Positions 4,277 through 42,797 of a DNA stretch of 42,797 nucleotides are shown here, piece after piece. This DNA comes from a virus: the IMG/VR virus record IMGVR_UViG_3300005511_000021; one strand, given 5' to 3'. Each line of letters opens with the position of its first letter. Position 1 is the first letter of the stretch. The translations under genes were made by a program, and so were the position numbers. A model generated the notes under the pieces. The model had not been told where the DNA came from and searched no databases. It worked only from the letters and a program-made list of their open reading frames with translations.

Positions 4277-4298
4277 ATTCCTGCTCCTTCCGTTTCCG

Positions 4299-5546: not shown

Positions 5547-5575
5547 TTTCGTTTACCTTTGGGAAATGCGCCAGA

Positions 5576-6457: not shown

Positions 6458-6502
6458 AGAGGTTCACTCCGTTTTCCGGTTGGTGATAGGGAATTGCGCC
6501 GC

Positions 6503-8557: not shown

Positions 8558-8560
8558 GAA

Positions 8561-9859: not shown

Positions 9860-10118
9860 GGACTATGTGGCGTTCGATACGGTGAATGACCTCAAGCGGG
9901 TTCTCTTCATCGCCGACGATGGCTTGCGGCGACTTCCCGTCCATTCGGTCAGCAAGCTCTTTGATTGCATCAAGCTTGCCCTCTTCCGCAGCAGAGATCA
10001 GCTTCTTGGCGATGAGGCGAAGCCCACGCTGGTCAAGCTCAGCTGCGGCGAGTTCAATCCTGAGAGCATCGCGAAAGGGCTTTTCCTGCTTGCGCCCGCT
10101 GTTTGCATTGCCGGCCAT
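9831..10118 (-). CDS. terS: Terminase small subunit candidate
   Basis: Internal ATG at 10118 gives 95 aa starting MAGNANSGRKQEKPF, typical of small terminases. Overlaps the terL start by 29 nt. Confidence 0.65.
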   Translation of the reverse strand: MAGNANSGRKQEKPFRDALRIELAAAELDQRGLRLIAKKLISAAEEGKLDAIKELADRMDGKSPQAIVGDEENPLEVIHRIERHIVRANAPDTNS

Positions 10119-10193
10119 TTTAAAATGACCATCCGATTGATTTGAAAGCCATGTGCTGCACTCCCTTTCAGGTTGGTGCAAAATGTAATTGTG

Positions 10194-10457
10194 TTACGCC
10201 AGAGCGATGATGTTAGTCGCCGTTGTGCCAGTGAGGAGAACCATCTTCGTACGCACTGGGATGATCTGACCAGCCAGGACACCGGTTATCGTGACGTCGG
10301 CGAGTTTATCTGTTGCCGGGTCGAATGCCCGCACTGCAATGTTGCCGGCGCCACCAACGAAGATAGCGCGGGTGTGCTTTTTCAGTTCTGCACTATCGCT
10401 GGGTGTGACAGCCCACACGTAGCCTGCCGGCTTGATCTCGTCGATGCCGCTTGCCAT
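10194..10457 (-). CDS. Small beta-rich protein resembling the RcGTA head-spike base family (RCAP_rcc01079-like)
   Basis: 87 aa. VTPSDSAELKKHTRAIFVGGAGNIAV...GVLAGQIIPVRTKMVLLTGTTATNIIAL matches my recollection of that family. AGGAGA Shine-Dalgarno. Confidence 0.6.
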   Translation of the reverse strand: MASGIDEIKPAGYVWAVTPSDSAELKKHTRAIFVGGAGNIAVRAFDPATDKLADVTITGVLAGQIIPVRTKMVLLTGTTATNIIALA

Positions 10458-10473
10458 ATGGATTTCTCCTGAA

Positions 10474-10501
10474 TTGACTTCCCGTAGTTACGGGATAGAA
10501 T
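10474..10501 (+). promoter_or_regulatory. Sigma70-type promoter for the brnA-like gene
   Basis: TTGACT (10474..10479), 16-nt spacer, TAGAAT (10496..10501), about 30 nt upstream of ATG 10531. Confidence 0.55.
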
Positions 10502-10513
10502 GCCGTAGTTACG
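10482..10513 (+). promoter_or_regulatory. Two 11-bp direct repeats CCGTAGTTACG (candidate operator)
   Basis: Copies at 10482..10492 and 10503..10513, 21 bp centre to centre. They overlap the promoter spacer and the region just after the -10. Confidence 0.5.
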
Positions 10514-10530
10514 AAATTGCGAGGAATGCC

Positions 10531-10803
10531 ATGGCCATCAAATTCACAAACGGCCCAGAGAAATTTCAGGCTCGAAAAGAGCAGTTGAGGTCAGAAAACA
10601 AAGTGATGTCATCTATCCTGCAGCATACCGCTGACGGGACATTGAAGGCTCCGAAGACCAAAAGCGGCAGAAAGCCAGATCCAAATGCCAAGAAGCTCTT
10701 GACGCTTCGCCTTGATCCTCAGGTGATTGAGCATTTCAGATCTACCGGCGAAGGCTGGCAAACCCGCATGAACGAGGCGCTGCGAAAGGCTGCCGGCCTA
10801 TAG
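10531..10803 (+). CDS. brnA: BrnA-family antitoxin-like protein, orphan (no BrnT gene present)
   Basis: 90 aa. C-terminal KKLLTLRLDPQVIEHFRSTGEGWQTRMNEALRKA matches the BrnA signature (RLD..V...F...G.GWQTRiN.aLr). Opposite strand to all neighbours. Confidence 0.75.
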   Translation: MAIKFTNGPEKFQARKEQLRSENKVMSSILQHTADGTLKAPKTKSGRKPDPNAKKLLTLRLDPQVIEHFRSTGEGWQTRMNEALRKAAGL

Positions 10804-11001
10804 CGCGCTATTTTTGTTGAGATACTGCTCGCCTCGCTGAAACCCAGCAGCCGGCTTCTTCTCCAGCATCTCAGGAAGAGCCCGCAACAGATCCTCAGTC
10901 GAGGAAAATGCATAAATGGGCCACAAAGACCCATCATTCACGCCTTCCGAGAGTACCCATCCACCGTTGTTGGCTCGTCTCAGGGTGAAATCGTTGTTCA
11001 T
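10798..11001 (-). CDS. Hypothetical protein
   Basis: 67-aa ORF in the late-operon leader block. Converges on the brnA-like gene with a 6-nt overlap. Confidence 0.6.
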   Translation of the reverse strand: MNNDFTLRRANNGGWVLSEGVNDGSLWPIYAFSSTEDLLRALPEMLEKKPAAGFQRGEQYLNKNSAL

Positions 11002-11010
11002 AGCGCGCGC

Positions 11011-11229
11011 CTATATCTCTTTGGGTACGATCGATCTTGCATCAGCTGGCGAAGCGCCGCCTTGCGGGAAGTCCTCGGGGTGAACCTTCTTCCATTCGAC
11101 CCAGAATGCCGATGGGTGCAGATGAGCGAGCTTGCGGAATAGCTCAAGATCCTTGGATCTCAGAGCCTTGAGGAGCGGCAGGAACGGGCTTGGCTGAGAT
11201 TCTTCGTGCCTGATGGTGATCTGCATCAT
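11011..11229 (-). CDS. Hypothetical protein
   Basis: 72-aa ORF on the same strand as the operon. Confidence 0.6.
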   Translation of the reverse strand: MMQITIRHEESQPSPFLPLLKALRSKDLELFRKLAHLHPSAFWVEWKKVHPEDFPQGGASPADARSIVPKEI

Positions 11230-18647: not shown

Positions 18648-19021
18648 GCCGCAGCCTCGTCCAGATCAATCACGTACGTGAACTTGAATCCTCGCGACCA
18701 ACGGCGAAACTTCTCAGTGGTGGCGATATGAAGTTTCCCTTTGCCGAACTCGCGGCCATCCGGGTCAATCCATTTGACCGTATAGAAAACGCGCTCTGGG
18801 TATCTCCCAGGCTTGTGAACATCCACCACCGTGAGGACTTGGAATCCCTCTCCATCGGCAATGATGTCGGTTTCGTCGCCGTAGTACCCGGCCTCCTCAA
18901 AACGAGCACCTGGGGTCCACGTCTTCGTCTGATGTTCTCCGTCTTCATCGAAGGTGCTGTATGTTCCTCTGACGAAAGGATAACTGTTTCGGAACACTTG
19001 CCCTGCAGTGAACTCGCTCAT
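18644..19021 (-). CDS. Hypothetical protein
   Basis: 125-aa ORF, ATGA-coupled, ends in AAA. Confidence 0.65.
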   Translation of the reverse strand: MSEFTAGQVFRNSYPFVRGTYSTFDEDGEHQTKTWTPGARFEEAGYYGDETDIIADGEGFQVLTVVDVHKPGRYPERVFYTVKWIDPDGREFGKGKLHIATTEKFRRWSRGFKFTYVIDLDEAAA

Positions 19022-19095
19022 GCTGCGGACTCCTTCGACCGCTCCTGCTCATCAAGCCAGTCGACGACGCGCTGGTATGTGTTGATGTTGCTCAT
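19018..19095 (-). CDS. 25-aa coupling ORF (MSNINTYQRVVDWLDEQERSKESAA)
   Basis: ATGA overlaps at both ends exactly fill the gap between neighbouring genes. GGAG lies upstream. Confidence 0.4.
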   Translation of the reverse strand: MSNINTYQRVVDWLDEQERSKESAA

Positions 19096-19475
19096 GCCGC
19101 AGACTCCTCGACAGCGTGCAATTCAAACCAAAACCGGTGGACAGGAAGGGCTGGGAATTGGAACCCGACAGCATCGAGCCAATCGACGATCTCTCTCGTC
19201 AGGTTTGGCCGCCCAGACTTCTTTATTGCGACATACTGGCGATACTCTTCCAGGGTTTTCAGGCCCTTTGCGCAATTGCATGCCTTGCAGGCCGGGACCA
19301 TGTTTTCCAGCGTGTCAAGTCCGCCCTTTGCCTTTGGCAGCAGGTGATCCGCGTCCATCCAGGAATTGTACCGCCCTTCAATCGTATCGACTTCGTCTGG
19401 CGTCAGGGCGAGCCCGCAATAGTAGCAATGGCCACCCGTCTTGTTCCATACGGCTTGTCTCGTGAGGCTTTTCAT
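19092..19475 (-). CDS. HNH endonuclease
   Basis: ATG 19475 is ATGA-coupled, giving 127 aa. Contains CYYCGLAL...DADHLLPKAKGGLDTLENMVPACKACNCAKG. Confidence 0.85.
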   Translation of the reverse strand: MKSLTRQAVWNKTGGHCYYCGLALTPDEVDTIEGRYNSWMDADHLLPKAKGGLDTLENMVPACKACNCAKGLKTLEEYRQYVAIKKSGRPNLTREIVDWLDAVGFQFPALPVHRFWFELHAVEESAA

Positions 19476-19675
19476 GCTGCCGACTCCCGCGCCGGACGGA
19501 ATGCATCCGGGATCAGCTCCTCGCGAGAGATCCCGGTGAACTCCGACACTTCCGGCAGATATTCGACCGGAACGTTCTTCCATTGGGAGATCGTTGACGG
19601 CTGCAGACCAAGACGCTCAGCGAGCCTGACCTGTGTGCCGCGATTTGCTTTGAAGAATTCAATGAGCTTTTCCAT
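19472..19675 (-). CDS. Cro/YdaS-like HTH regulator, first gene of the leftward early operon
   Basis: 67 aa from ATG 19675. QVRLAERLGLQPSTISQWKN is an HTH. The track's TTG start at 19693 is the operator sequence TTGACTGAA. Confidence 0.75.
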   Translation of the reverse strand: MEKLIEFFKANRGTQVRLAERLGLQPSTISQWKNVPVEYLPEVSEFTGISREELIPDAFRPARESAA

Positions 19676-19684
19676 GCCCCCATA

Positions 19685-19727
19685 TTCAGTCAAAATGAAA
19701 TTCAGTCAAGCAAAATCTTTCAGTCGA
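19685..19727. promoter_or_regulatory. Three direct copies of the operator TTCAGTC(A/G)A in switch region 1
   Basis: Copies at 19685..19693, 19701..19709 and 19719..19727, between the divergent HTH genes. Confidence 0.6.
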
Positions 19728-19768
19728 GCGCTATGGAATGCATTTTTCTCATGAGCGAAAATTGAGGC

Positions 19769-20095
19769 ATGGGAACACGGAAGAAAACAGACGGCTCGAA
19801 CGGCCCTCGCCACTACATCAGGGAGTGGCGGAAGTACCGCGGCCTTACGCAGGAGCAGTTGGCGGGGAGACTGGGGGTTGTAACTTCTAGCGTCTCCCAG
19901 CTGGAAACCGGCAAGCAGGGCTATAGCCAGCCAATGCTTGAGGCGATCGCGGACGCGCTTGGTTGCGGGCCTGCAGATCTCCTGAATGTGAACCCGTTCA
20001 TGGAAGGCGAGGTCGTCGACCTGATGCGGCTCATCAACGACAAGAACCGCGACCAGGCCATCCGAGTGCTACGCGCGCTGACCGGCACGGATTAG
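19769..20095 (+). CDS. XRE-family HTH regulator with no S24 peptidase domain
   Basis: 108 aa. RGLTQEQLAGRLGVVTSSVSQLETGKQ is an HTH. Confidence 0.85.
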   Translation: MGTRKKTDGSNGPRHYIREWRKYRGLTQEQLAGRLGVVTSSVSQLETGKQGYSQPMLEAIADALGCGPADLLNVNPFMEGEVVDLMRLINDKNRDQAIRVLRALTGTD

Positions 20096-20304
20096 AGAAT
20101 TTTCGAAACCAAAACGAACTCGAGATTTTTGTCGACGGTGACGCGCCATTGTCCGCCGGCAAGTCTCCGCATGGTTTCTGACAGCTGGCCGGCCTCTTTC
20201 AAGCATACTTCCTGAGGCGACGACTGTGCCGACGCAGACTTGACGACGGTCGAAGCCGCCACGCCGGTTGCAATTGTTCTTATTATTTCCCGTCTTGTTT
20301 GCAT
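20092..20304 (-). CDS. Small exported protein with a twin-arginine signal peptide
   Basis: ATG 20304 with GGGGAG Shine-Dalgarno. MQTRREIIRTIATGVAASTVVKSASA then QSS. Mature part about 44 aa. Confidence 0.6.
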   Translation of the reverse strand: MQTRREIIRTIATGVAASTVVKSASAQSSPQEVCLKEAGQLSETMRRLAGGQWRVTVDKNLEFVLVSKIL

Positions 20305-20544
20305 ATGGCGCACTCCCCGCGATTTTCCTTGTAGGCTGAGGCTTTTTAGCAATTTATCAACTTCGAAAGTGCGCTATCCGGCACTTCTGCGGCGGGTGGT
20401 TAACGGATCGGCCAATGATCGAGGCGATTTCTAGCCATCGGATTCTATGCTTTCACAACACTGTCCCACCCTTCCAATTACTCCCCTCAGAGCAAGATCT
20501 TTATACCCTAAGATAACTCTGTTCTAAAACTGACCGTTCTAATG

Positions 20545-20592
20545 GGTGCATCACCACGCACCTCAGCAGGTGCATCACCACGCACCTCAGAA
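20545..20592. repeat. Tandem 24-bp direct repeat, 2 copies
   Basis: GGTGCATCACCACGCACCTCAGCA followed by GGTGCATCACCACGCACCTCAGAA. Each copy contains GGTGC...GCACC inverted arms. The second copy overlaps the stop codon of 20587..20940. Confidence 0.9.
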
Positions 20593-20940
20593 CGGGCCGG
20601 ACAATTCGACAGGGACAAGCTCGTAGGCATTAAACAATTTTGTATGGCCTGGGACTTTGACGCGGGTGGCCCTGATCAGCTTTTCGTCCTTCAGCTTCCT
20701 GACCGCGCTTTTGACGACGCGGACGCCGCAGTCCAGATCCTCGGCAATTCGGCTTTGAGATAGAACCCACGGCGTCGTCGGGTTGATGGCCGAGGCTATA
20801 CGGATTGCCACCAGCTTCTCCACATAGGTGTATTCGTCCTTTCTCTTGCAAAGGATGAACTTAATCCAGTTATCGCGCATCCGGTAAAACTGCCCTGCCG
20901 GAGAGAGCTTCTGCGTCTGTATGTCCATGCTCACAGACAT
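20587..20940 (-). CDS. Winged-helix DNA-binding protein (candidate repressor or initiator)
   Basis: 117 aa from ATG 20940. QSRIAEDLDCGVRVVKSAVRKLKDEKLI is wHTH-like. The track's TTG start at 20964 is operator sequence. Confidence 0.7.
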   Translation of the reverse strand: MSVSMDIQTQKLSPAGQFYRMRDNWIKFILCKRKDEYTYVEKLVAIRIASAINPTTPWVLSQSRIAEDLDCGVRVVKSAVRKLKDEKLIRATRVKVPGHTKLFNAYELVPVELSGPF

Positions 20941-20955
20941 AAGCCGGAAACAAAT

Positions 20956-20997
20956 TTCAGTCAAAGCGAAAATTCGTCTTGACTGAATTTCAGTCGC
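20956..20997. promoter_or_regulatory. Second operator set using the same TTCAGTC half-site, including a 15-bp perfect palindrome
   Basis: TTCAGTCAA at 20956..20964. GACTGAA-T-TTCAGTC palindrome at 20981..20995. The downstream TTCAGTCGCTCGCTATG parallels TTCAGTCGAGCGCTATG at 19719. Confidence 0.6.
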
Positions 20998-21045
20998 TCG
21001 CTATGTTCTCCTCAACGAAACGCAGAACAGCAGATCTCAGCCCAC

Positions 21046-28592: not shown

Positions 28593-28795
28593 GCAGAGCC
28601 CGCACTTACACGAAGTCCGAAATCTCCGATGCTGCGGCTGCCGCGGCTAGCCATAACGTCCGGGTGGTCATGCACCCGAACGGCGAAATCGAATTCGCTC
28701 CGAAGAGTTTTACCGCGGTCGATCGAGAAGACGATACCGCCGAGAAGGCTTTGAGGAATTGGCAGAATGGAAGGCAAGCTGGTGGGCGTGCATAG
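28589..28795 (+). CDS. Hypothetical protein at the excisionase position, with no clear HTH
   Basis: 68-aa ORF, ATGA-coupled. Overlaps the int start by 29 nt. Confidence 0.55.
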   Translation: MSRARTYTKSEISDAAAAAASHNVRVVMHPNGEIEFAPKSFTAVDREDDTAEKALRNWQNGRQAGGRA

Positions 28796-29798
28796 GATCA
28801 AGGTCAAGCTGGCCGATGGGTCGGAAACGATCTACTACTATGCATGGCGGGGAAAAGGCGCACCGAGGATCCACGCCAAGCCGGGGACGAAAGCCTTTAC
28901 GCAGGAATTCGTTCGCCTCACCAGAGATCGGCCGGTGCACGTCGCATCCGGAACGATCGGCTCTCTTATCGAGGAATTCCGTTCCACCGCGAAATATAAG
29001 GCTCTAGGAGCCAATACCCGCAAGGACTATGAACGCATGTTCGGAGCTATCCGGGCTGAATACGAGTCCTTCCCGATTTCGGCCATAGAGGCTCGTGGAA
29101 GCCGAAAACTGTTCCTTGAGTGGCGAGACACCATGAAGGACGCGCCCCGCTCTGCTGATATGCACCTGGGGCTGCTGGCAAGGCTCTTCGCGTGGGCGAA
29201 GGACAACGAAACCATTCTCCGCAATCCGCTGGAGCGCGTCGAGCGCCTTCACGAGGGCAGCAGGCGGGACTCCGTATGGACGATGGATCAGATCAACACC
29301 GTTCTCACCAAGGCCGCTCCGCATCTTCGAAACGTGGCCTGTGTGGCGCTATGGACGATGCAGAGGCAGGCCGACCTGTTGACGATGCCGATGATCGCTT
29401 TCGATGGCGAGCGGGTATCGATCAAGCAGGGGAAGACGGGCGCGCGGGTTCGCATCACCGCAGCGCCGGCCATCTTGCCGATACTGCAGGAGGCCAAGAC
29501 CCATCAGCGCCAGCGCGTGCTGGTCAACTCATTCGGCCAAAACTGGACATCGAGCGGCTTCAAATCATCATGGGGGAAAGAGATGACGCGCCTCGGCATC
29601 AAAGGCGTGACCTTCCACGATCTGCGCGGAACGGCGATCACCTATGCCTATGCGAACCTCGATAGATCGCATGAGGAGAAGATCCAGCTTATCGCCGAGA
29701 TCTCGGGTCATTCTCGGGAGGATGCGGAGGGGATTATTCGGCGTCACTACCTGGCAGGCCAGGAGATTATCGACGCCATCAGCCGCGGAACGAAATGA
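28767..29798 (+). CDS. int: Tyrosine integrase
   Basis: 343 aa. C-terminal catalytic region has FHDLRGTAITYAY and HSREDAEGIIRRHY (R..HxxR..Y type). Adjacent to attP. Confidence 0.92.
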   Translation: MEGKLVGVHRIKVKLADGSETIYYYAWRGKGAPRIHAKPGTKAFTQEFVRLTRDRPVHVASGTIGSLIEEFRSTAKYKALGANTRKDYERMFGAIRAEYESFPISAIEARGSRKLFLEWRDTMKDAPRSADMHLGLLARLFAWAKDNETILRNPLERVERLHEGSRRDSVWTMDQINTVLTKAAPHLRNVACVALWTMQRQADLLTMPMIAFDGERVSIKQGKTGARVRITAAPAILPILQEAKTHQRQRVLVNSFGQNWTSSGFKSSWGKEMTRLGIKGVTFHDLRGTAITYAYANLDRSHEEKIQLIAEISGHSREDAEGIIRRHYLAGQEIIDAISRGTK

Positions 29799-30658: not shown

Positions 30659-31024
30659 ATGAGAAAAATCGAAAGCCTACAAGATGACATGAACGGCACG
30701 GTTACCTATGAGATAGCCGAAGGCCGGTGGGTCACCTTGGATGCGAGGATCGTGCGAGAAATCGGGCTGAAGGCTGTCATGGAGAGCCATGGCGTTGAGA
30801 TGCCGACCGGACGGCTACCGGTCTTCCAGCGGGGCCGGGAGATCGGATCTTTGCCGGTGGCCTTCGACCCGCTGATGATCAAGTCAACGTCATTCCTCTA
30901 CGACCCTCGTCCCGGCGACTTCAGGCGCACCGATAAAGGCTGGGTCGCGGCGGATAACATGGGTCCGGGAGACTTCGAATGCATTCCAGAATTCAGTCGT
31001 TCTCTTGCCGAGAACTTTAATTAA
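30659..31024 (+). CDS. Hypothetical protein (att-proximal cargo)
   Basis: 121 aa from ATG 30659 with GGAGGA Shine-Dalgarno. Its stop overlaps the stop of the convergent gene within the palindrome TTAATTAA. Confidence 0.6.
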   Translation: MRKIESLQDDMNGTVTYEIAEGRWVTLDARIVREIGLKAVMESHGVEMPTGRLPVFQRGREIGSLPVAFDPLMIKSTSFLYDPRPGDFRRTDKGWVAADNMGPGDFECIPEFSRSLAENFN

Positions 31025-31448
31025 TCTTCAACCAATGCCTGAGAGCCGAAACTGCCCCATCGCTCGCCCAAGTGACAATAGCGCCGACTGTAAGGCCAGC
31101 AAACGCGATCAGACCTGAGATACCGTAGCCGATAGACTTCATGCGTCTCCACTCCTCTAGGGCCGGCTGTGTGGCAGCGTGGTTCTTGTCTACGGTATCC
31201 CGGAGGTTTTTTATCTCCTCCCGAAGAGTAGCATCAACGCCGCTGCTGATCTCGACGACCTTATCCAGCAGATTGATCTGTCGCATCTGTTCATCGAGCC
31301 GGCGATGAATGACAGACCGGCTTTCGTGGGCATTGTCCTTTTCGTCGCTCACGTCCTCCCTCAACAGGGAAACGCTTTCTTCAATGCCTGTGAGTCTGCC
31401 TTCGACCCGGCCAAGGGCGCGCAGGATATCGTCGTTGGATGTCATCAA
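31017..31448 (-). CDS. Coiled-coil protein with a C-terminal transmembrane helix (DUF1515-like); holin or lysis-regulator candidate
   Basis: 143 aa. Long helical region followed by IGYGISGLIAFAGLTVGAIVTWA. Confidence 0.65.
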   Translation of the reverse strand: MMTSNDDILRALGRVEGRLTGIEESVSLLREDVSDEKDNAHESRSVIHRRLDEQMRQINLLDKVVEISSGVDATLREEIKNLRDTVDKNHAATQPALEEWRRMKSIGYGISGLIAFAGLTVGAIVTWASDGAVSALRHWLKIN

Positions 31449-31584: not shown

Positions 31585-34104
31585 TTATGCTACTTGGGGA
31601 AGAACCGGATGGTTCACGTCCCGAGCCAACAGCTTCGTGCGCAGTGTCGAATAGTCAACGTCCTGCACGTTCGCTGTCGCGTCGATCGCCATGGAAGCGA
31701 TAACGCCGGCCGCCTCGCCCTTGAGGCCGCCTGTCGGCTCCAGCCTACCCATATACCAGCAAAGGATCGTGCAGGAAGATCCCCACGGCACGACGACGTT
31801 CGTCTTTACCCCAACATCGGGAACGATCTCCTCAAGCGGTACAGGGGCCATCTTGTCGGCGCCGGCCACCAGCGAGCCGGGAACGCTGCCCTGCGTGTAT
31901 AGGAGGCCACCAGAGGCCACCTTCCACGGGGGATGCTTGTCGCAGTCATAGCTCGTCACGGCAATCGTCTTGTCGGATCTGAGAGCCGAGCCATCGACCT
32001 TGCAATAATCCTGCGCCGTCGAGACGTAGCCGGTGTTTTTCAGGCGCCAGATCGGATCGCGCTGATACGGGCGGTTCGGCCAGAACAGCAAGCCGCCGGG
32101 ACCGGGATCGAGGAACGTGCCTGCGTCGAGCCCGAGCGCTTGGAACTGTGTCACAAGAGTTCCGGGGATGCGGCCGTCCCCGGAGTTGGCGTGCCACCAG
32201 AACCAACCAAGCTGGTAGTCCCGAAGGTCATCGATCACGGCCAACTGCGCCGCACGGTTTGCCGCTGTGGCGTACCGATAGCCGCTGCCCGGCAAGTCGG
32301 TGGAGAGGCCGCCAGAACCGTTGTTCACGTCCATCTTGTTTGTCGAGCCACCAACCGCGAACTGCAGGATGGTGGTGGTGACCGCCGGATTGCCGATCGT
32401 AACGCCGGGGTTAAGGACATAGGCGCGAGCCGCGGTCTCGTAGCGAAGCGAATTGTAATTCCGATGCGGGTCCATGGTCGTCACTGGAACCATGCGGGCC
32501 ACGTCGGTCGTCATCGCAAGGCGATAGTTCATACTCTCGATCGACGGATCGACGCCATCAACGGTCAAGCCGGGCAGAGGCATTTCGCCCTGGATATCCG
32601 GCAGAAGACCGGACGCCTGGACGCCATCCGTGATGTAGGGGCTGATATCCGAGCCATAGGGCTTGCTCATCGAGCCGGATCCCTTGTAGCCGTTGTTGGC
32701 TTCGGAACCTGCGCCTGCAGCCTCGCTGCCCGTAAAGGTCGGGATGCCGGCCGACTTGTGGATATATTCGCCATCATAGTCCGCGGCGATGAACTGCCGA
32801 GCCGTGAATGTCCGCCCGTCGTTGGTCTTCAGCGCCGTGTCCTTCAGGCCGACCGATGTGATGGATTGGATACCGGTGGAGAAGTAGACCGGGATATCCT
32901 GCCCGAGAATGAGCGTTCCGTTCGTCCGTGCTGGGTCGAGCATGCGCCGAACGCCCTGGACGAACTGCCAGCTTTCGATCGAGTTACCCGTTTGCGTGTT
33001 GGTGTCCGCCCGGTTGATGATCGTGCTATTGGCCCAGGATGTGAGGTCTCGATAGAGTCCCTTCAGCGCCGTGAAGTTATAGCAGTCGACATAGGCCAGA
33101 CCGGATGCCGGCATGCCGCCGATATCCCAATCGGTTTTGGCGAGGTCGTCGAGCACCATGCAGACGGTCTTGCCTTCCTGCTTGGCGGCGTAGGCGGCAG
33201 AAACCCCTGTCCAGCTTGCGCCATAGACAACAACGTCATAATCGGCCGTCGTTGGGGCTTTGCCAGCGTCGTAGTAGTCGACCATGCCGAAGCGGATCTT
33301 GTAGTAATAATCCAGCAGGGCAGCACTGATCTCCATGCACTGGGCATCGGTCAGCCGCACCTTGAAGATGGCGAAGAGCCCGCAATCGTGCACGGACAGC
33401 GCGCCGCCGTTGATGCCGCCGAGATGGATGGTCGGATTGGTGGCAGGCGCGACATAGGTTGTGGACGGAGCTTCGCGCGTGATCCCGAATGTGTCGATGC
33501 TGTTCGAACGGAAGCTATACATGCCCTGGCCCGGGCTGATGGTCGCCGAAGTGGAAACGTAGTTCGCAGCCTGAAGACGCGCATTGATCTTGTTGGAGGC
33601 GTCCCGGATATTACCCCCGATGCCATCTGCGCCGGCCGTCTGCGCGCCGAAGTCACCGCTGCTGGCGGCGTTGCTGGACCGGGAATAGTAGAAGATCGTG
33701 AACTGGCCTTGGGCGAAGGTCTGCAGTCCGATGCCGGTGTTATATTTGGCTGTTGACAGCCAGCTTCCCCAGCGGTCGTTTGCCGTATAGGTCGGGACAC
33801 CCGCACCAGTCAGGGTCAGATCGTTCGTGCCGGGATGAAACTTGTTGACGCGGCTGTTGATTTCGGTCGGCGTGTCTGGCGAATACATGGCCAGGGCATC
33901 GGCCATGCTTACACCAGCGCCCTTGATGCGGACGATGAGCCGGTCAAAGGCAAGCTTCTGCCGTCTGGTCATCGGAATGCCGGCCGCCGTCTTCGACGTG
34001 TTGAGCGTATCGGTTTCCGTCTGGAACTGGAAATCCGGGAGCGATGTGCCCCCTCCTCCGCTTCTCACGCCTGTAAGGGCCAGGTTCAGTCCAAGCATGG
34101 TCAT
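31585..34104 (-). CDS. Tailspike-position protein: N-terminal virion/lectin-like region plus an FAD-dependent-oxidoreductase-type (PF12831-like) domain
   Basis: 839 aa. Dinucleotide-binding fingerprint DYDVVVYGASWTGVSAAYAAKQEGKTVCMVLDD around residue 290. C-terminal NVVVPWGSSCTILCWYMGRLEPTGGLKGEAAGVIASMAI resembles the closing segment of that family. Confidence 0.75.
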   Translation of the reverse strand: MTMLGLNLALTGVRSGGGGTSLPDFQFQTETDTLNTSKTAAGIPMTRRQKLAFDRLIVRIKGAGVSMADALAMYSPDTPTEINSRVNKFHPGTNDLTLTGAGVPTYTANDRWGSWLSTAKYNTGIGLQTFAQGQFTIFYYSRSSNAASSGDFGAQTAGADGIGGNIRDASNKINARLQAANYVSTSATISPGQGMYSFRSNSIDTFGITREAPSTTYVAPATNPTIHLGGINGGALSVHDCGLFAIFKVRLTDAQCMEISAALLDYYYKIRFGMVDYYDAGKAPTTADYDVVVYGASWTGVSAAYAAKQEGKTVCMVLDDLAKTDWDIGGMPASGLAYVDCYNFTALKGLYRDLTSWANSTIINRADTNTQTGNSIESWQFVQGVRRMLDPARTNGTLILGQDIPVYFSTGIQSITSVGLKDTALKTNDGRTFTARQFIAADYDGEYIHKSAGIPTFTGSEAAGAGSEANNGYKGSGSMSKPYGSDISPYITDGVQASGLLPDIQGEMPLPGLTVDGVDPSIESMNYRLAMTTDVARMVPVTTMDPHRNYNSLRYETAARAYVLNPGVTIGNPAVTTTILQFAVGGSTNKMDVNNGSGGLSTDLPGSGYRYATAANRAAQLAVIDDLRDYQLGWFWWHANSGDGRIPGTLVTQFQALGLDAGTFLDPGPGGLLFWPNRPYQRDPIWRLKNTGYVSTAQDYCKVDGSALRSDKTIAVTSYDCDKHPPWKVASGGLLYTQGSVPGSLVAGADKMAPVPLEEIVPDVGVKTNVVVPWGSSCTILCWYMGRLEPTGGLKGEAAGVIASMAIDATANVQDVDYSTLRTKLLARDVNHPVLPQVA

Positions 34105-34110
34105 GGGCGT

Positions 34111-34329
34111 CTACTTTCGGCAGGCCGGCAGTTTGTCGCACGTCTGATTATGCGCGACGACCTGCTTGGCGAAGGGGATATCGTTGGCGATGATGAATTT
34201 CCGGGTGACGGCAGACGGGCTTAGACGCTCGAATCCGGCACCGTCATTCGCAGAGGTTGTCGCCTGGCACCCAGACGCCGCCCAAGCGACGGCAAATATC
34301 GGCAGGAGAGAGTTTGCCAATCTCAGCAT
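34111..34329 (-). CDS. o-spanin (outer-membrane lipoprotein, Rz1-like)
   Basis: 72 aa. Signal peptide plus lipobox AASGC. Overlaps the 3' end of the i-spanin gene out of frame. Confidence 0.75.
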   Translation of the reverse strand: MLRLANSLLPIFAVAWAASGCQATTSANDGAGFERLSPSAVTRKFIIANDIPFAKQVVAHNQTCDKLPACRK

Positions 34330-34522
34330 TGGTTTTGCCTCGTTCTCGAATTAGATCCATCGATCGCTGAAGAGCAGCGGTGCGTTCTGCGTCCCTGCCC
34401 TCACTACGGGCCGCAGGAAGCCACCAGATAGCGTTTATGACGATCAGGATGGATGCGGAGGCTAAAGCCCCGGCAAGCGCTGCTGCGGGCAGCTTGAGGG
34501 CGTCAGGGATAAAGGAAAGCAT
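34244..34522 (-). CDS. i-spanin (Rz-like)
   Basis: 92 aa from the internal ATG 34522, which overlaps the endolysin TGA (ATGA). N-terminal TM LPAAALAGALASASILIVINAIWWL, then a charged periplasmic helix with C-terminal Cys residues. Confidence 0.7.
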   Translation of the reverse strand: MLSFIPDALKLPAAALAGALASASILIVINAIWWLPAARSEGRDAERTAALQRSMDLIRERGKTNAEIGKLSPADICRRLGGVWVPGDNLCE

Positions 34523-35211
34523 CAGTTCTTCATCCTGTCCCAGACGTATAGGCCGCCGCCGACAAGGCAGGCGATGACGAGGATGGCCGCGAGCGCGTAG
34601 GCGATCGGTCCATTGGTCGGAACGAACTGCAGTCCGCCACCAGACAGGAGCGCGGTCCCGGTGCTGAGCACCTTGCCGTTGATGAGCGGCGCGCGCTGCT
34701 TGTCGGCGATCGTGCCGGAAGACTGAACGAATGATCCCTCGGCCCAGAGCCCCGCCTCGGCCGCGCGCCGGTTGACAAGCCCCTGCATCGTCTTGCCCTT
34801 GGATTTCGTCCATTTGGCAAGCTCAGCCGGGACAGCGGCATAATTGCCGGTATTGAGCTTCTTCAGGAGCGTGGAAGATCGGAAGTTTGCTGCGCCGACG
34901 TTGAACGCAAAACTGACGAGAGCCGCAAACTGGTTGTCGTTGAGCGGAACCTTGACGCTGGCCTCTACGACAGCCTCGAACGCCGCCAGATCCTGATAGA
35001 GAAGATCGGTCGATTGCTGCGAGGTGATCGTCATGCCGGGGCGCACGTCGGGCCCAGTGTGCCCTACCCCGATTGTCAATGTTCCCTTGATCCTGTCGCC
35101 GCTCTTGATGCGGCGGCGATTGGATGGCGGGTCGAAGTCGTCATAGGCGAAGAGGATTTCCCCCTCCCACTGTTTAAGCTTCTGGATGCCATAAGCGCTG
35201 ATCTTGCGCAT
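34522..35211 (-). CDS. GH24 lysozyme (endolysin) with a C-terminal transmembrane helix
   Basis: WEGEILFAYDD...TLTIGVGHT carries the catalytic E/D/T pattern. C-terminal IAYALAAILVIACLVGGGLYVW. I prefer ATG 35211 (GGAGAGA Shine-Dalgarno), giving 229 aa. Confidence 0.88.
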   Translation of the reverse strand: MRKISAYGIQKLKQWEGEILFAYDDFDPPSNRRRIKSGDRIKGTLTIGVGHTGPDVRPGMTITSQQSTDLLYQDLAAFEAVVEASVKVPLNDNQFAALVSFAFNVGAANFRSSTLLKKLNTGNYAAVPAELAKWTKSKGKTMQGLVNRRAAEAGLWAEGSFVQSSGTIADKQRAPLINGKVLSTGTALLSGGGLQFVPTNGPIAYALAAILVIACLVGGGLYVWDRMKN

Positions 35212-35318
35212 GGGGTTTCTCTCCATTGGTGAAATAGGAAGGAGACTGCGCGCCAGTTGTGGACGAGCATGGAAGTCTCCAGATTGTCAGAAGATTCGCG
35301 TTAAGGTATGCATTGGGG

Positions 35319-36086
35319 ATGAAACTCATCCCGCTCTTGTTTTCAGCGCTGCTCTTTGCCTGCCAGGCGTTCGCCCAGGCTGGGCCGTCCGAGCCGCTTC
35401 TCGCCAAAATGATGGTCGCCCGGGACAGTTACGGAAGCGTGATCTTCACCTTTGGTGACAGCATCATGCGAGGCTATGCCCTCGGCTTCTTCCCGGACAG
35501 CTCGACGAAAGAACAGATGGACAATCCGGACTGGGAGCTTCGTTCCCCAGCCTCGCAGTTGCGCAGCCGTGGCTTCATGGCTGTCTACGCCGGCCTGAAC
35601 GGACAGCCTGATATGGTAGAGGATGGGGCAGAGTGGATTTCGGATCTCGTCAAGCGCGGCGTTATCCGCGATGGTGATGTGGTTGTGCTCGAAGACGCGG
35701 GACGCCACGACAAGGCCCCGATGGTATATTTCGACAACTGGTTGAAGATCGGCGCCGCGCTCAGGGGCGTTGATGTCAAGCTGATCATGATGACCATACC
35801 GGACGATATCAAATCCCCTGTTGTCGGTGGAGAACCTGCCGACCTATACCGCTATTCCATCGATTTCGGAGGGGTGAGCTATAACGATGCGACGACCTTT
35901 GCGGCCCATGTCCTCGGTGCCAAGCTTATTGACCTCAAAACCATGATAAACGAGGTCACGAAATCGGGGTATACCGTCCTGCATGATGACGGGATACATC
36001 AGAACATCAAAGGACAGACAATCATGGTGGATGCAATCATCCAAGAATGCACTGGCTCATATACTGGAAAGCACGCAGCGCGTTGA
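35319..36086 (+). CDS. Secreted SGNH/GDSL-family esterase (moron; opposite strand to the late operon)
   Basis: 255 aa from ATG 35319. Sec signal MKLIPLLFSALLFACQAFAQA. Block I FTFGDSIMRGYALG. Catalytic DDGIHQN. Confidence 0.85.
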   Translation: MKLIPLLFSALLFACQAFAQAGPSEPLLAKMMVARDSYGSVIFTFGDSIMRGYALGFFPDSSTKEQMDNPDWELRSPASQLRSRGFMAVYAGLNGQPDMVEDGAEWISDLVKRGVIRDGDVVVLEDAGRHDKAPMVYFDNWLKIGAALRGVDVKLIMMTIPDDIKSPVVGGEPADLYRYSIDFGGVSYNDATTFAAHVLGAKLIDLKTMINEVTKSGYTVLHDDGIHQNIKGQTIMVDAIIQECTGSYTGKHAAR

Positions 36087-36861
36087 AGGTCGTCGAGCCG
36101 TATTTCAGTTGGGCATATTGCGTATATGCGAGGTTCTTCAGCCCATTGCAGTCATTGATATAGGGCCGATACTGAAGCGCCTTGAGCAGTTCCCCCACCA
36201 TGAGGGCCTGCCCCCAGACATTCGGATGAATGTCGTCAGGATGCATCACATCAACGTTGTCGACTGATTTTGCCGATGACCGCCAGTTGTCCATTGCTGT
36301 CTTCATGTCGATCCAAAGCGTCTGGCCTCGCTCGTTCGGAATGGTCGCCTGATAGGCGGCCACGGTAGCGGCATTCATTGTGCGCTGATTGGGTGCCGTT
36401 CCGAAGAGGGTGCTGTACTGGCTGTCAGCCGCGGCATTCGGATAGCTGAACATGCTCATCATGACCAACGTGATATCGAAGCGGTCAACCACGGCGGCGC
36501 GGAACTGCTCCCATTGGCTTTGGTAGAGGTCAGGATCTTGGTTGTGCGGGCCGGCGTCTTCTGCCACGACAACATCGCCGCTGCGAATGGTTCCGTTGGC
36601 GACTAGGGCGCGGATAGAGGCAACCGTGGTCGATATGTCGGAACTGAGATTGACCGCGGGAATCCCAGTGTAATTGAATTCGTCTCGAATGCCGTTCTCG
36701 TAAAGCACGTTGTTTGCCATAGACGATATCGAGGCAAACAGCAGAATCGCATTCCGCGGGTCGCTTGGACCATTGGCGATGATCTGCTCGCTATATGCCC
36801 CGAGAGCATAGCCTTTCGAAAGGCTGTCGCCGATGAGATGGATGTGCCTGCGGTGCGTCAT
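36037..36861 (-). CDS. SGNH/GDSL-family esterase without a signal peptide, in the late operon next to the fibre gene
   Basis: 274 aa. IHLIGDSLSKGYALG, VVVAEDAGPHNQ, MHPDDIHPN. Clearly a paralog of 35319..36086. Confidence 0.85.
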   Translation of the reverse strand: MTHRRHIHLIGDSLSKGYALGAYSEQIIANGPSDPRNAILLFASISSMANNVLYENGIRDEFNYTGIPAVNLSSDISTTVASIRALVANGTIRSGDVVVAEDAGPHNQDPDLYQSQWEQFRAAVVDRFDITLVMMSMFSYPNAAADSQYSTLFGTAPNQRTMNAATVAAYQATIPNERGQTLWIDMKTAMDNWRSSAKSVDNVDVMHPDDIHPNVWGQALMVGELLKALQYRPYINDCNGLKNLAYTQYAQLKYGSTTFNALRAFQYMSQCILG

Positions 36862-36869
36862 GGTTTCTC

Positions 36870-38042
36870 CTAGAGAGTGTCGTCGTGCCAGCCGAAGGTC
36901 TCAATCTGGCGCTGGGAAACTGTGCCCGCGGCGATTGTCAGCGCCTGGTAGATCTGCCGGTTTGTGTTTGAGACGAAAGCGTCAATAACGATGCGATCGG
37001 CCGCGAGGCCACCGGCTGCGGTCAAGGCTTGCTGAATGGTGAATACAGCCGAACCAATGTCGGCATCCCCGACCAGATAGACTACGTTTGTAGAAGCTGC
37101 GAGAACCAACTGAGAGCCGAATATGGGCCTCACTGAAATTCCGGCCGGGATTGAAAGAGTTATCGTTTCACTGGTGAATGCGGTTGCAACAGTGCTGTCG
37201 ATCTTTGGCGCATTGCGCAGAAAACGCTTGTTATATTGCTTGAATCCGACAATCGCCGCGCTCTCCCGGAGAATTGATCCTATTCGGCGCTTGCGGTCGT
37301 AGTTCGTCGGCATGGTCGGGGAAGTGGCAGAGGTAGAAAACAGGACGTCTACCACGCCGGTATCTGACCTCTGGATAAGCCAGACATGATAGGTCGTATT
37401 CGCGATAGAGCCAGTATCGAGACCTCCCTGGTTCGTGCCGACTGCCCAGGATGCATCGAGGCGCTTGGTCAGCGCAGAGGCAAGCGTCATGAGATATGGG
37501 GTTGTACCGTCACTTGCGGCCGATCCCACAGCAATATCGATGTCATTTGTGGCGTCAGAGCCATTATTCGAAAGCGTGAGACCATAACGATGGCCCTGGA
37601 TCGCCATACCAATCGTAGCTTCGCCAGAAATAGCCGCATAGAAGGCTGTTCCATTGCAGCGAATGACAGCGCGTTGACCGTTGAGGACGGTAATCGTCGT
37701 CAGCCCGTTGATCAGCTCTGAACCGTTCGGGTCGATCGTGACATCCCCGCCGGAAGCAACAACGATGTGCTCCCATCCATTGGTCAGGGTGGCTGCTGCC
37801 GTTAGCCCAAGGGTGGCGCTTGCCGTGAAGAGCGACACTTGATTGTGATCAGCCTTGACCGCTGTATAGCCGGCGCCGCGAGACGTGAAGCGGGAGACGA
37901 GGTTTGATGCCCCTTGCGCCATCAGCTCCCGGAAGGCGTTGTCGAAGTTATTGACGTTGTTGGAGCCCTGCACACCGATATTGTTGATATCGGTGTTGTT
38001 CGATGCGGTAGCATCCCATTCGAGGACGTTGCTCTTTGCCAT
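36870..38042 (-). CDS. Tail fibre protein
   Basis: 390 aa. The N-terminus VLEWDATASNNTDINNIGVQGSNNVNNFDNAFRELMAQ is typical of alphaproteobacterial phage/GTA fibre N-termini. Confidence 0.75.
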   Translation of the reverse strand: MAKSNVLEWDATASNNTDINNIGVQGSNNVNNFDNAFRELMAQGASNLVSRFTSRGAGYTAVKADHNQVSLFTASATLGLTAAATLTNGWEHIVVASGGDVTIDPNGSELINGLTTITVLNGQRAVIRCNGTAFYAAISGEATIGMAIQGHRYGLTLSNNGSDATNDIDIAVGSAASDGTTPYLMTLASALTKRLDASWAVGTNQGGLDTGSIANTTYHVWLIQRSDTGVVDVLFSTSATSPTMPTNYDRKRRIGSILRESAAIVGFKQYNKRFLRNAPKIDSTVATAFTSETITLSIPAGISVRPIFGSQLVLAASTNVVYLVGDADIGSAVFTIQQALTAAGGLAADRIVIDAFVSNTNRQIYQALTIAAGTVSQRQIETFGWHDDTL

Positions 38043-42367: not shown

Positions 42368-42797
42368 TTATAGGAAACCTCCAAGGAGGCCGGCGCCTGT
42401 CGCGCCATAGCCAAGGGCCGTCAAGAATGGGTTTTGACCAGGCTGTGATTGCGTCTGAGAGCCGCCAAGTTGACCGGCGCCAGATGCGATAGCCTGGAGC
42501 CTGGAAAGGTTCTCCCAAGGCTTGTTCTGCTGCTCGTTGAAGACGCGGAGGCGATCGTTCATCAACCGCGTGGCATAATCGTCATCCATGCCGCCGACCT
42601 TCATCAAGTCCTGAGCCGGAGCCTGCATGCCGGAATAAGCCTGCCCGAGCTGACCGAATCCGGTCTGGCCCATGTTGAAGAGGTTGGAATTCGCCGCATC
42701 CTTGCGCGTCTGCCAGTTCTGGAACTGCCGGGCGCCAAGATCGCCGATCGTGCTTCCGAGGAGCTGCTGATTTGTGCCTGAGCCATAGCGGCCGGCG
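42368..42797 (-). CDS. C-terminal part of the wrap-around virion protein gene (same gene as 1..515)
   Basis: In frame with ATG 515 through the 120-bp overlap. Stop TAA at 42368..42370. Confidence 0.75.
   Translation of the reverse strand, partial: AGRYGSGTNQQLLGSTIGDLGARQFQNWQTRKDAANSNLFNMGQTGFGQLGQAYSGMQAPAQDLMKVGGMDDDYATRLMNDRLRVFNEQQNKPWENLSRLQAIASGAGQLGGSQTQSQPGQNPFLTALGYGATGAGLLGGFL
42678..42797. repeat. Exact 120-bp terminal direct repeat, copy 2
   Basis: Identical to 1..120. Confidence 0.95.

Follow-up and report, generated by a model that had tools for sequence, protein, structure and literature searches.

An exchangeable, candidate host-glycan-processing protein with a PF12831 FAD-oxidoreductase-type body in a phiU-like Rhizobium podovirus

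The closest described counterparts of the locus considered here are the modular tailspikes and second receptor-binding proteins of phages, such as P22 gp9, the SGNH esterase gp63.1 of G7C, and the second receptor-binding protein of Klebsiella KP32-type podoviruses, which carries a short N-terminal docking peptide. To our knowledge, the phage enzymes that act on surface glycans are drawn from a limited set of folds, namely, beta-helix lyases and hydrolases, sialidase-type propellers, and SGNH esterases. Here, we analyzed an 839-aa gene in the virus record IMGVR_UViG_3300005511_000021; the window, that is, the whole stretch of 42,797 nucleotides, is the complete circular genome of a phiU-like Rhizobium temperate podovirus. 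Like modular tailspikes, the gene stands at the end of a late operon, its product has an exchangeable body behind an N-terminus matched to the tail chassis, and esterase or propeller enzymes occupy the same slot in sister phages. Unlike them, it has a Rossmann/FAD-type PF12831 body without a beta-helix, its conserved N-terminus is just ~19 aa long, and it follows the lysis cassette. We propose, with a probability of roughly 0.55, that the gene encodes an exchangeable host-glycan-processing protein that is docked to the tail via its N-terminal peptide.

The gene that the initial annotation had placed at positions 31585–34104 is a genuine minus-strand ORF of 839 aa running from ATG to stop, and only two in-frame codons separate the upstream stop from the ATG. 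The locus comprises the following features.

31585–34104, minus strand: 839-aa ORF encoding an N-terminal peptide, a Gly linker, a ConA/LamG-type lectin module, and a putatively catalytic PF12831 Rossmann-type body
34111–34329, minus strand: o-spanin-like lipoprotein gene, the upstream flank of the slot, with its stop 6 nt ahead of the 839-aa ATG
31017–31448, minus strand: DUF1515-like gene (143 aa), the downstream flank of the slot, with a coiled coil and a C-terminal hydrophobic segment
31544–31578, no strand assigned: hairpin with a 15-bp stem, directly 3′ of the stop codon of the 839-aa gene
36870–38042, minus strand: tail fibre gene (390 aa), with the first 139 aa conserved and the remainder divergent

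The 839-aa gene is co-oriented with the late genes, abuts them, and is the last in the string of structural and lysis genes, proximal to att/int. The initial annotation was correct as regards the last large late gene and its att/int proximity, but not as regards a place directly after the fibre genes, from which it is separated by an endolysin gene and an i/o-spanin pair; its position past the lysis cassette does not correspond to that of P22 gene 9. In a promoter and terminator scan, no promoter-like site was found upstream of the gene, and the 3′ hairpin, which has no U-tract on the coding strand, was the only informative element. The DUF1515-like gene is kept across all phiU-like relatives.

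Among phiU-like phages, the slot between the o-spanin and DUF1515 genes is hypervariable, and relatives carry in it either SGNH esterases or a protein that combines a BNR_4 propeller with LamG. A peptide of ~19 aa followed by a Gly linker is common to the N-termini of all five slot proteins of these phages, whose bodies are of the PF12831, BNR_4, or SGNH type. These peptides are alike at the amino acid level, whereas their DNA and upstream context differ, a pattern that points to preservation by selection rather than by DNA identity. The LamG plus PF12831 body also occurs, at 62–88% identity, on lambda-J-type siphovirus prophages behind other N-terminal peptides; the peptide tracks the tail chassis and not the enzyme body. 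The locus thus has the shared N-terminal module and the exchangeable distal body of a tailspike or receptor-binding protein, although the AlphaFold2 model contains neither a parallel beta-helix nor another known depolymerase fold. A variable slot with a common N-terminal peptide, together with related bodies on other chassis, supports a swappable enzyme that acts on a host surface glycan and is probably docked to the virion. Related arrangements occur elsewhere: in an Agrobacterium vitis prophage, the homologue is the last late gene, with a 938-aa GDSL protein gene before it and DUF1515 after it, and the relative P0023, a PF12831 body without the LamG module, is also a last late gene preceded by that of a GDSL protein.

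The 839-aa protein itself can be divided as follows.

34048–34104, minus strand: residues 1–19, MTMLGLNLALTGVRSGGGG, chassis-specific N-terminal peptide with a poly-Gly linker; candidate docking peptide
33289–34044, minus strand: residues 21–272, a ConA/LamG-type jelly roll with two helices, presumably binding glycans
31630–33237, minus strand: residues 290–825, PF12831 "FAD dependent oxidoreductase" domain (hmmscan)
33145–33243, minus strand: residues 288–320, beta-alpha-beta dinucleotide-binding fingerprint with G295-A-S297-W-T-G300

Residues 1–19 were disordered in the AlphaFold2 model. A Sec signal peptide was considered for this stretch and rejected by eye, as it has no basic n-region, is polar in sister phages, and is followed by a Gly run. 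Residues 28–272 were modelled as two helices and a beta jelly roll, and Foldseek searches with residues 21–272 identified the lectin domains of trypanosomal trans-sialidases and domain 4 of the GH43 enzyme AbnA in the PDB (E = 1.6e−7), as well as, in BFVD, LamG-like modules of proteins and tail fibres from phages of Rhizobium and Sinorhizobium (E = 1.4e−14 to 1e−7). The region accordingly has the ConA-like lectin/LamG jelly-roll fold of these trans-sialidase, AbnA, and phage tail-fibre modules, and is set apart from them by a leading pair of helices and by the motif LPxFxxQxETxxL...RRxxxDRLIxxxK; no Pfam family matched it. A tblastn search of phages with the N-terminal domain returned one record, and a profile of the module built from 114 sequences matched the C-terminus of the slot protein of RHph_N3_2 (80.7 bits). 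Because the LamG-type module stands at the C-terminus in RHph_N3_2, the ~270-residue region is not the virion-attachment part, and any docking role would be left to residues 1–19. Of the two possibilities first raised for this region, a lectin-type jelly roll is therefore upheld and virion attachment is not.

The protein may instead be a soluble late enzyme outside the virion that is freed at lysis and thins the biofilm matrix or the EPS/CPS, letting progeny get away and reach new cells, with the N-terminal peptide serving otherwise, e.g., in translation, folding, or localization; we regard this as a real but clearly less probable alternative. It agrees with the position of the gene, which follows those of the endolysin and the spanins and starts 6 nt past the o-spanin stop, and with the membrane-type DUF1515 protein encoded downstream, because of which the 839-aa gene may sit within an extended lysis module. 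It also agrees with a 1984 paper by Hollingsworth et al., listed in PMC5061743, whose title refers to lyases that are induced by phage and act on polysaccharides of Rhizobium trifolii; we know of no work in which the genes for those EPS-degrading activities were identified. Furthermore, no known tail-attachment domain was recognized in the protein by the Pfam and PHROG scans, which, like the location past the lysis cassette and a presumed anchor of just ~19 aa, counts against a tail-docked enzyme. Against a soluble enzyme, the peptide tracks the chassis while the body swaps, and vice versa, as is usual for receptor-binding proteins carried on the particle. The two-domain architecture was present in 115 of the 179 relatives retrieved, and 31 of these 115 have N-terminal extensions of 92–1560 aa, which likewise argues against a soluble enzyme. 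Pfam and PHROG scans of the long extensions found Ig-like He_PIG repeats in three, one GH16, and two PHROGs of unknown function; because domain matches are so few, the label "tail-fibre-like" for these extensions rests mostly on appearance.

As had been proposed for the remainder of the protein, hmmscan assigned residues 290–825 to PF12831 (FAD_oxidored) with an E-value of 2.4e−26 and 93.4 bits (cutoff, 27), and the match spanned the full profile (positions 1–416 of 416). In the AlphaFold2 model of the whole protein (pLDDT, 84.2; pTM, 0.89), residues 286–839 formed a Rossmann-type two-domain body behind the jelly roll, and the beta-helix that had been said to be missing was indeed absent. The C-terminal part resembled MnmG, urocanate reductase, flavocytochrome c3, and KstD (Foldseek E-values of about 1e−6; probabilities of 0.98–1.0). 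These matches indicate an FAD-binding-domain fold and cover mainly the FAD-binding subdomain of ~170–200 residues, longer alignments having an rmsd of >15 Å. Compared with GR2-type flavoproteins (MnmG/GidA, the flavocytochrome c3 fumarate reductase, urocanate reductase, and 3-ketosteroid delta1-dehydrogenase), the FAD-binding subdomain has the same fold, and a GG-containing segment follows beta2 in both. In contrast to them, the P-loop has another residue in place of its second Gly, sequence matches end at ~45 residues, TM-scores are ≤0.28, and the remaining body is without a close solved counterpart. Searches of PDB sequences with the 839-aa protein, a core family member, and the family profile matched generic flavoproteins over no more than their first ~45 residues; an NCBIfam scan gave only sub-threshold matches to Rossmann N-termini, and no PHROG family matched the protein.

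The protein matched at least 1173 representative clusters, a scan of one genome per species gave at least 600 matches, and a profile search of a set of 5.8 billion proteins added one new sequence. The cellular relatives are found in Bacteroidota, Verrucomicrobiota, Planctomycetota, and Acidobacteriota; they carry signal peptides, in some cases with a CBM-like Golvesin_C domain, and the genes of some adjoin those of sulfatases, SusC/D, or SGNH (GDSL) esterases. The statement that the family clusters in polysaccharide-utilization loci held for one member, P0021, which adjoins SusC/SusD, three sulfatases, and one GH29, and only loosely for 56 further loci. A census of the neighborhoods of cellular relatives was diffuse, with the commonest family, sulfatase, making up 8 of the 112 neighbors. 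The query shares with this secreted clade (e.g., P0021 and P0022) the motif D-hhh-Y-G-x-[T/S]-x-x-[G/A/S], the segment GGM..GLG..D340, and the (near-)invariant residues R528, R560, D592, N594, R645, Y680, R682, Y719, D722, H724, R787, and E789. However, its identity to cellular members is 27–29%, its Pfam score is 93 bits as against 366–375 bits, and its N-terminus is a LamG module, where the cellular proteins have a signal peptide and in some cases Golvesin_C. We found no paper describing a characterized PF12831 glycan enzyme or a PF12831 domain in a phage receptor-binding protein, and no solved structure or paper that assigns a function to the clade. The papers gave no backing to "Xanthan lyase" as a name for the family.

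The dinucleotide-binding fingerprint quoted in the initial annotation, DYDVVVYGASWTGVSAAYAAKQEGKTVCMVLDD, was located at residues 288–320 (window positions 33145–33243). Its GxGxxG keeps the first and third Gly but has Ser (S297) for the second. Among phage-type sequences, 100 of 108 have T or S there, as do 39 of 45 cellular ones, and ~95% of the clade has a residue other than Gly at this position, giving a clade-wide P-loop motif of Y-G-x-[T/S]-x-x-[G/A/S]; one homologue with 79% identity keeps the canonical GSGPSG. Beyond beta2 the query has D319 and D320, one of which aligns with the Asp of thioredoxin reductase, but the acid canonical for beta2 is not a conserved feature of the clade, most members reading G-G-W-R-[D/E] there. 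No C-terminal motif of GD/GE type was recognized by eye in the clade alignment, in which the region expected for it reads N769-[LVF]-x-V-...-S777-x-[T/S]-...-R787-M-E789. Because the second Gly is Thr/Ser, the beta2 acid is not conserved, and the GD-type motif was not recognized, flavin binding by the 839-aa protein is uncertain on the sequence, and these altered FAD determinants, together with the cellular-clade residues missing from the query, count against the proposed glycan-processing enzyme. Thirteen polar residues are (near-)invariant in the clade and all are present in the query, i.e., the twelve just listed as shared with the cellular clade and D340. The conservation of the altered P-loop in both phage and cellular clades and these thirteen residues indicate an active site under selection, and five conserved Arg with Tyr, His, and Asp suggest a carboxylate-bearing substrate.

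The same residues speak to the idea that the protein is a receptor-binding protein that only binds, its Rossmann-type body having lost cofactor and catalysis to become a glycan-binding scaffold. The non-canonical P-loop, the unconserved beta2 acid, and the lack of a GD-type motif recognizable by eye would fit such a loss, as would the fact that the query is without H780, the GREA Arg, and the YxRExRR RR, all of which cellular members conserve. Nevertheless, the Y-G-x-T/S P-loop is itself strongly conserved in phage and cellular clades and the query retains all thirteen polar residues, and we consider this explanation improbable.

A fibre or decoration protein of the capsid or head that binds, and perhaps processes, polysaccharide is more improbable still. 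In four other phages (RHph_N3_19, RHph_I72, RHph_Y55, and the IMG/VR contig L026), full-length homologues do sit between the genes for the portal and the major capsid protein, which also counts against a tail-docked enzyme; however, the gene is at the tail/lysis end here as well as in the prophages of lambda-J type and of A. vitis, and its slot-mates in sister phages are esterases and propellers typical of tail spikes. It is just as hard to credit a lysogenic-conversion or auxiliary metabolic flavoenzyme that works inside the lysogen, e.g., on sugar-nucleotide or lipid-linked precursors, and is unrelated to the particle: the att/int-proximal gene, its annotation as an FAD-dependent oxidoreductase, and the missing signal peptide would suit it, but the gene abuts the late genes in their orientation with no promoter-like site found upstream in the scan, the product has a lectin-type module, homologues lie within head modules of other phages or bear long N-terminal extensions, and the cellular relatives are secreted.

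Returning to the exchangeable, tail-docked protein, cleavage of a host polysaccharide has contextual support only, from its slot-mates, the lectin module, the GDSL and sulfatase neighbors of its relatives, and the one relative fused to GH16. The title of the 1984 paper by Hollingsworth et al. counts for this main reading as well. The N-terminal peptide would anchor the protein on the tail, where the 390-aa fibre is a possible partner; such docking would resemble that in some Klebsiella podoviruses, whose second receptor-binding proteins have short N-terminal peptides. NAD-dependent GH4 and GH109 enzymes cleave glycosides with the assistance of their cofactor. A route of glycoside cleavage by C3 oxidation and beta-elimination is described in Agrobacterium tumefaciens (PMC10628242). 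The likeness to either is a mechanistic analogy only, as the folds and families differ. By this analogy, a bound dinucleotide could oxidize a sugar transiently or permanently and so leave a labile glycosidic bond, and polysaccharide cleavage is a candidate activity of the protein. The host EPS is an acidic polymer of an octasaccharide (Glc:GlcA:Gal, 5:2:1) with acetate, pyruvate, and 3-hydroxybutyrate (PMC5061743). The lectin module may bind Rhizobium LPS or EPS/CPS of this acidic, acylated kind, while the Rossmann-type domain with its dinucleotide (FAD or similar) would cleave or oxidatively modify the polysaccharide at an anionic sugar, probably jointly with the SGNH-like esterases of the phage, whose genes stand at 36037–36861 and 35259–36086. 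Because no characterized family member was found, this chemistry is a guess. It is more tentative than the swappable, docked protein that the PF12831 body may be a dinucleotide-dependent, particle-borne enzyme that cleaves or oxidizes acidic bacterial surface polysaccharide, and hence a new catalytic class of receptor-destroying protein.

If so, this would be the first function for a large secreted orphan clade in glycan-degrading Bacteroidota, Verrucomicrobiota, and Planctomycetota, and the protein might be one of the EPS-degrading activities that were reported in 1984 to be induced by phage in Rhizobium trifolii. Placed in an exchangeable slot, a Rossmann/FAD-type body would bring a further chemistry to host recognition, one not known there before, and the phage protein, with its defined host and defined polysaccharide, would open a tractable route into a widespread orphan family. 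For the biology of Rhizobium, the 839-aa protein and its BNR_4 and SGNH slot-mates are candidate genes for phage-induced EPS degradation, and they could help to study or engineer the host range of rhizobiophages.

The 839-aa protein is encoded by an ORF at 31585–34104 on the minus strand, and because just two in-frame codons separate the upstream stop codon from the ATG, it has no hidden longer N-terminus. A search against Pfam-A (hmmscan) matched PF12831 (FAD_oxidored) at residues 290–825 over the full length of the profile (positions 1–416 of 416; E-value 2.4e−26, 93.4 bits, gathering score 27), and by this profile match the protein is a PF12831 member, as the initial annotation had proposed; the dinucleotide-binding fingerprint quoted there lies at residues 288–320. 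An AlphaFold2 model built with 25 homologues as input (mean pLDDT 84.2, pTM 0.89) was divided as follows:

Residues 1–19, disordered segment
Residues 28–272, two helices, then a beta jelly roll
Residues 286–839, Rossmann-type two-domain body

The modeled protein contained no beta-helix, in agreement with the earlier view that a beta-helix depolymerase is replaced here by a jelly roll and a Rossmann-type body. In Foldseek searches of the PDB, the N-terminal part resembled the lectin domain of trypanosomal trans-sialidase and domain 4 of the GH43 arabinanase AbnA (E-values about 1e−7), and the C-terminal part resembled flavocytochrome c3, MnmG/GidA, SdhA, and urocanate reductase. The anticipated structural match to flavoenzymes was recovered mainly for the FAD-binding subdomain (approximately 170–200 residues), which the close matches covered; longer alignments with whole flavoenzymes had an rmsd of >15 Å, indicating that the remaining body is without a close solved counterpart. 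A separate model of the catalytic part alone (pLDDT 76.4) gave Foldseek TM-scores of ≤0.28, and sequence searches of the PDB matched only generic flavoproteins, over their first ~45 residues. The loop at residues 462–477 (window about 32674–32721), which bears a conserved G-[RS]-E-A...E...N-G motif, had a pLDDT of <50 in both models and may be a lid that becomes ordered only upon cofactor or substrate binding.

An exact 120-bp direct repeat occurs at the window ends (1–120 and 42678–42797), indicating that the window represents a complete genome of about 42.7 kb assembled as a circle; its closest relatives in the databases are phiU / RHph_N3_2 / RHph_I1_23-type phages of Rhizobium. The minus-strand late gene string, which continues across the window ends, starts with the large terminase, portal, scaffold, major capsid, and two virion structural proteins; injection-type proteins come next across the window ends, and the genes beyond them are as follows, together with the integrase:

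36870–38042, minus strand, 390-aa tail fibre, after the injection-type proteins
36037–36861, minus strand, 274-aa protein whose N-terminus contains a GDSL-type block (HLIGDSLSKG), next after the tail fibre
34522–35226, minus strand, Phage_lysozyme endolysin, after the 274-aa protein
Between the endolysin and 839-aa genes, minus strand, i-spanin/o-spanin pair
31585–34104, minus strand, 839-aa gene, after the spanin pair
31017–31448, minus strand, 143-aa DUF1515-like gene, after the 839-aa gene
28767–29798, strand opposite to the late genes, integrase

This order bears out the proposal that the 839-aa gene is the final large late gene and att-proximal, but it does not directly follow the fibre genes, because a lysis cassette intervenes. 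Its ATG lies 6 nt downstream of the o-spanin stop codon, and a hairpin with a 15-bp stem lies 3′ of its own stop codon. The 274-aa ORF had no Pfam or PHROG match, and its positional counterpart in RHph_Y25 is annotated "acetylesterase." On the opposite strand within the late region, a 275-aa ORF (35259–36086, plus strand) with weak, sub-threshold GDSL/SGNH matches and an apparent signal peptide following an internal Met (MKLIPLLFSALLFACQAFAQA) may encode a moron or lysogenic-conversion esterase. In the endolysin, a hydrophobic segment at the C-terminus (IAYALAAILVIACLVGGGLYVW) is an unusual C-terminal membrane anchor, not an N-terminal signal-anchor-release (SAR) sequence.

The sister phages shared the layout of the window but carried differing proteins in the slot flanked by the spanin and DUF1515 genes:

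Window, 839 aa, LamG and PF12831
RHph_N3_2 (EVB98_023; 18932–21022 of its locus, L004), 696 aa with a BNR_4 propeller domain
RHph_I1_23, 452 aa, SGNH-type
RHph_Y1_10, 452 aa, SGNH-type
RHph_Y25, 805 aa with GDSL domains

The flanking DUF1515 protein was 63–82% identical across these phages, and the 390-aa fibre was of the classic kind in which the N-terminus is conserved (55% over 139 aa) and the remainder diverges. Only the first ~19 residues (M..LGL[SN]L.[LI]....GGGG) were common to the five slot proteins. The codons of this peptide differ at many nucleotide positions, and in RHph_N3_2 the DNA upstream of the slot is unrelated and has an inserted HNH gene, indicating that the peptide is kept by protein-level selection and not by a common recombination junction. 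A profile of the query N-terminal module (114 sequences) matched residues 444–680 of the RHph_N3_2 slot protein (80.7 bits). That protein, composed of the common peptide, a BNR_4 propeller (residues 86–307), and this C-terminal LamG-type module, is a candidate second uncharacterised glycan enzyme. Since the module is found at either protein end, it is better read as glycan-binding than as a particle anchor; of the two roles initially offered for the ~270 N-terminal residues, the lectin fold is retained and virion attachment is not. The DUF1515-like gene (window 31017–31448, minus strand; L004 21155–21568; L005 12667–13029), which encodes a coiled coil with a C-terminal hydrophobic segment, lies 3′ of the slot in every phiU-like phage and, in an Agrobacterium vitis prophage, 3′ of the PF12831 homologue; it has a weak counterpart in a Microcystis phage and might belong to the lysis module.

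Prophage-like IMG/VR contigs carried bodies 67–88% identical to that of the query. Those of the phiU-like phage type (L014, L015, and L023) had an LGL-type N-terminal peptide, and those whose central tail fibre is of the lambda-J type (L016, L021, L022, L024, and L025) had unrelated N-terminal peptides, followed by a Gly-rich stretch and the conserved lectin-module start LP.F..Q.ET. In these sequences, the N-terminus tracks the phage type while the body swaps, and different bodies occur behind one N-terminus. Such two-way exchange is the usual signature of a particle-bound receptor-binding protein, and we infer this role for the 839-aa protein, a putative variant of the exchangeable phage receptor-binding/depolymerase proteins that resembles them in locus and not in fold. 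The strongest alternative is a soluble enzyme made together with the lysis proteins and set free when the cell lyses, as the gene position after the spanins and the lack of a recognisable anchor would suggest; the N-terminus linked to the phage type argues against it. In the A. vitis prophage, a full-length homologue (28% identity) is the final late gene, preceded by three small genes and the gene of a 938-aa GDSL protein and followed by a DUF1515 gene; P0023, a 1396-aa homologue with a PF12831 body and no LamG module, is likewise a final late gene after a GDSL protein. Four unrelated phages encode full-length LamG + PF12831 homologues between portal and major capsid, a location unexpected for a tail enzyme:

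3935–6484 (L001), 7899–10484 (L002), and 7911–10469 (L003), the loci of RHph_N3_19, RHph_I72, and RHph_Y55
7698–10460 (L026), IMG/VR contig

A head-associated role is therefore possible in those four phages, and a head-associated fibre, suggested by these head-module homologues, is a weaker alternative to a tail-bound receptor-binding protein for the query.

HMMER, run exhaustively against 1.84 billion cluster representatives, yielded 1173 matches to the query at E ≤1e−3 (160 at E ≤1e−30). The LamG + PF12831 architecture was found in 115 of 179 collected sequences, 31 of which had N-terminal extensions of 92–1560 aa. Among 24 extensions scanned against Pfam, three contained He_PIG Ig-like repeats and one contained a GH16 domain; two of eight long homologues scanned matched PHROGs of unknown function, and no scanned extension matched a named tail-fibre domain. 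In P0043 (2427 aa), the LamG + PF12831 body is preceded by Ig-like repeats and a GH16 domain, which would place two putative glycan-active modules in one fibre-like protein. A 328-kb IMG/VR contig labelled a giant-virus MAG (L029) encodes, at 7965–11090, a distant relative with 22% identity across the catalytic part. The catalytic-only relatives were mostly cellular proteins, with matches starting 7–60 residues from the N-terminus. Both cellular relatives examined had signal-peptide-like N-termini; the gene of one (P0021) is flanked by sulfatases, beside SusC/SusD and GH29, and the other (P0022) has a Golvesin_C CBM-like domain. When one genome per species was scanned, the best 80 of at least 600 matches came from Bacteroidota, Verrucomicrobiota, Planctomycetota, and Acidobacteriota. 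The commonest Pfam families among 112 immediate neighbors were Sulfatase (8), MFS (6), PF12831 paralogues (5), GDSL esterases (5), GFO_IDH_MocA (4), and TonB-dependent receptors (3), a neighborhood that is carbohydrate-flavored yet diffuse. The secretion of relatives, the lectin module, and the late-operon position all argue against another of the weaker alternatives, a lysogenic-conversion or metabolic flavoenzyme.

Flavin binding is favored by the FAD-domain fold, the retained first and third Gly of the P-loop, a conserved [LIV]-G-G-M-x-x-x-G-L-G-x-x-D340 segment after beta2, and, in the query, a separate Asp downstream of beta2 that lines up with the Asp of thioredoxin reductase. Several features speak against canonical binding. 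At the second Gly position of GxGxxG, 100 of 108 phage-type sequences and 39 of 45 cellular ones have Thr or Ser (Ser297 in the query), and the residue ahead of the first P-loop Gly is an invariant Tyr. In place of an acidic residue, the end of strand beta2 reads G-G-W-R-[D/E] in most members; no GD/GE-type motif was recognised by eye. Because the altered P-loop is strongly conserved, it looks like an adaptation, not decay. The name "flavoprotein" is premature for a protein with a predicted FAD-type fold. The active-site-like polar residues D340, R528, R560, D592, N594, R645, Y680, R682, Y719, D722, H724, R787, and E789, all present in the query, are (near-)invariant in both the phage-type and cellular clades, which makes a scaffold that only binds a weak alternative; five Arg together with Tyr, His, and Asp hint that the substrate is anionic. 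A few residues typical of the cellular clade (the GREA Arg, the RR of YxRExRR, and H780) are missing from the query lineage, which scores 93 bits against PF12831 versus 366–375 bits for cellular relatives; judged by these residues and scores, it is a divergent branch of the family.

As a receptor-binding protein, the 839-aa protein would dock to the tail through residues 1–19, and its lectin module would bind acidic, acylated EPS/CPS or LPS. The EPS of Rhizobium leguminosarum is a polymer of a Glc:GlcA:Gal 5:2:1 octasaccharide carrying acetate, pyruvate, and 3-hydroxybutyrate (PMC5061743). The Rossmann-type body, with a dinucleotide cofactor, would then cleave or oxidise the polymer at a carboxylate-bearing sugar, probably assisted by the SGNH-like proteins of the phage. 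Cofactor-assisted bond labilisation is used by the NAD-dependent GH4/GH109 enzymes, on other folds. It also underlies a C3-oxidation/beta-elimination route in Agrobacterium tumefaciens, again on another fold (PMC10628242). Both may serve as precedents for the chemistry, while their folds differ from that of the 839-aa protein. The literature searched contained no functional interpretation, characterised family member, or solved structure, and three GenBank phage records label homologues "FAD dependent oxidoreductase" or "hypothetical protein." Phage-induced lyases acting on Rhizobium trifolii polysaccharides were reportedly the subject, by title, of Hollingsworth et al. in 1984, and to our knowledge no gene was ever assigned to these activities. 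The slot proteins are candidates for the sources of the phage-induced activities reported then.
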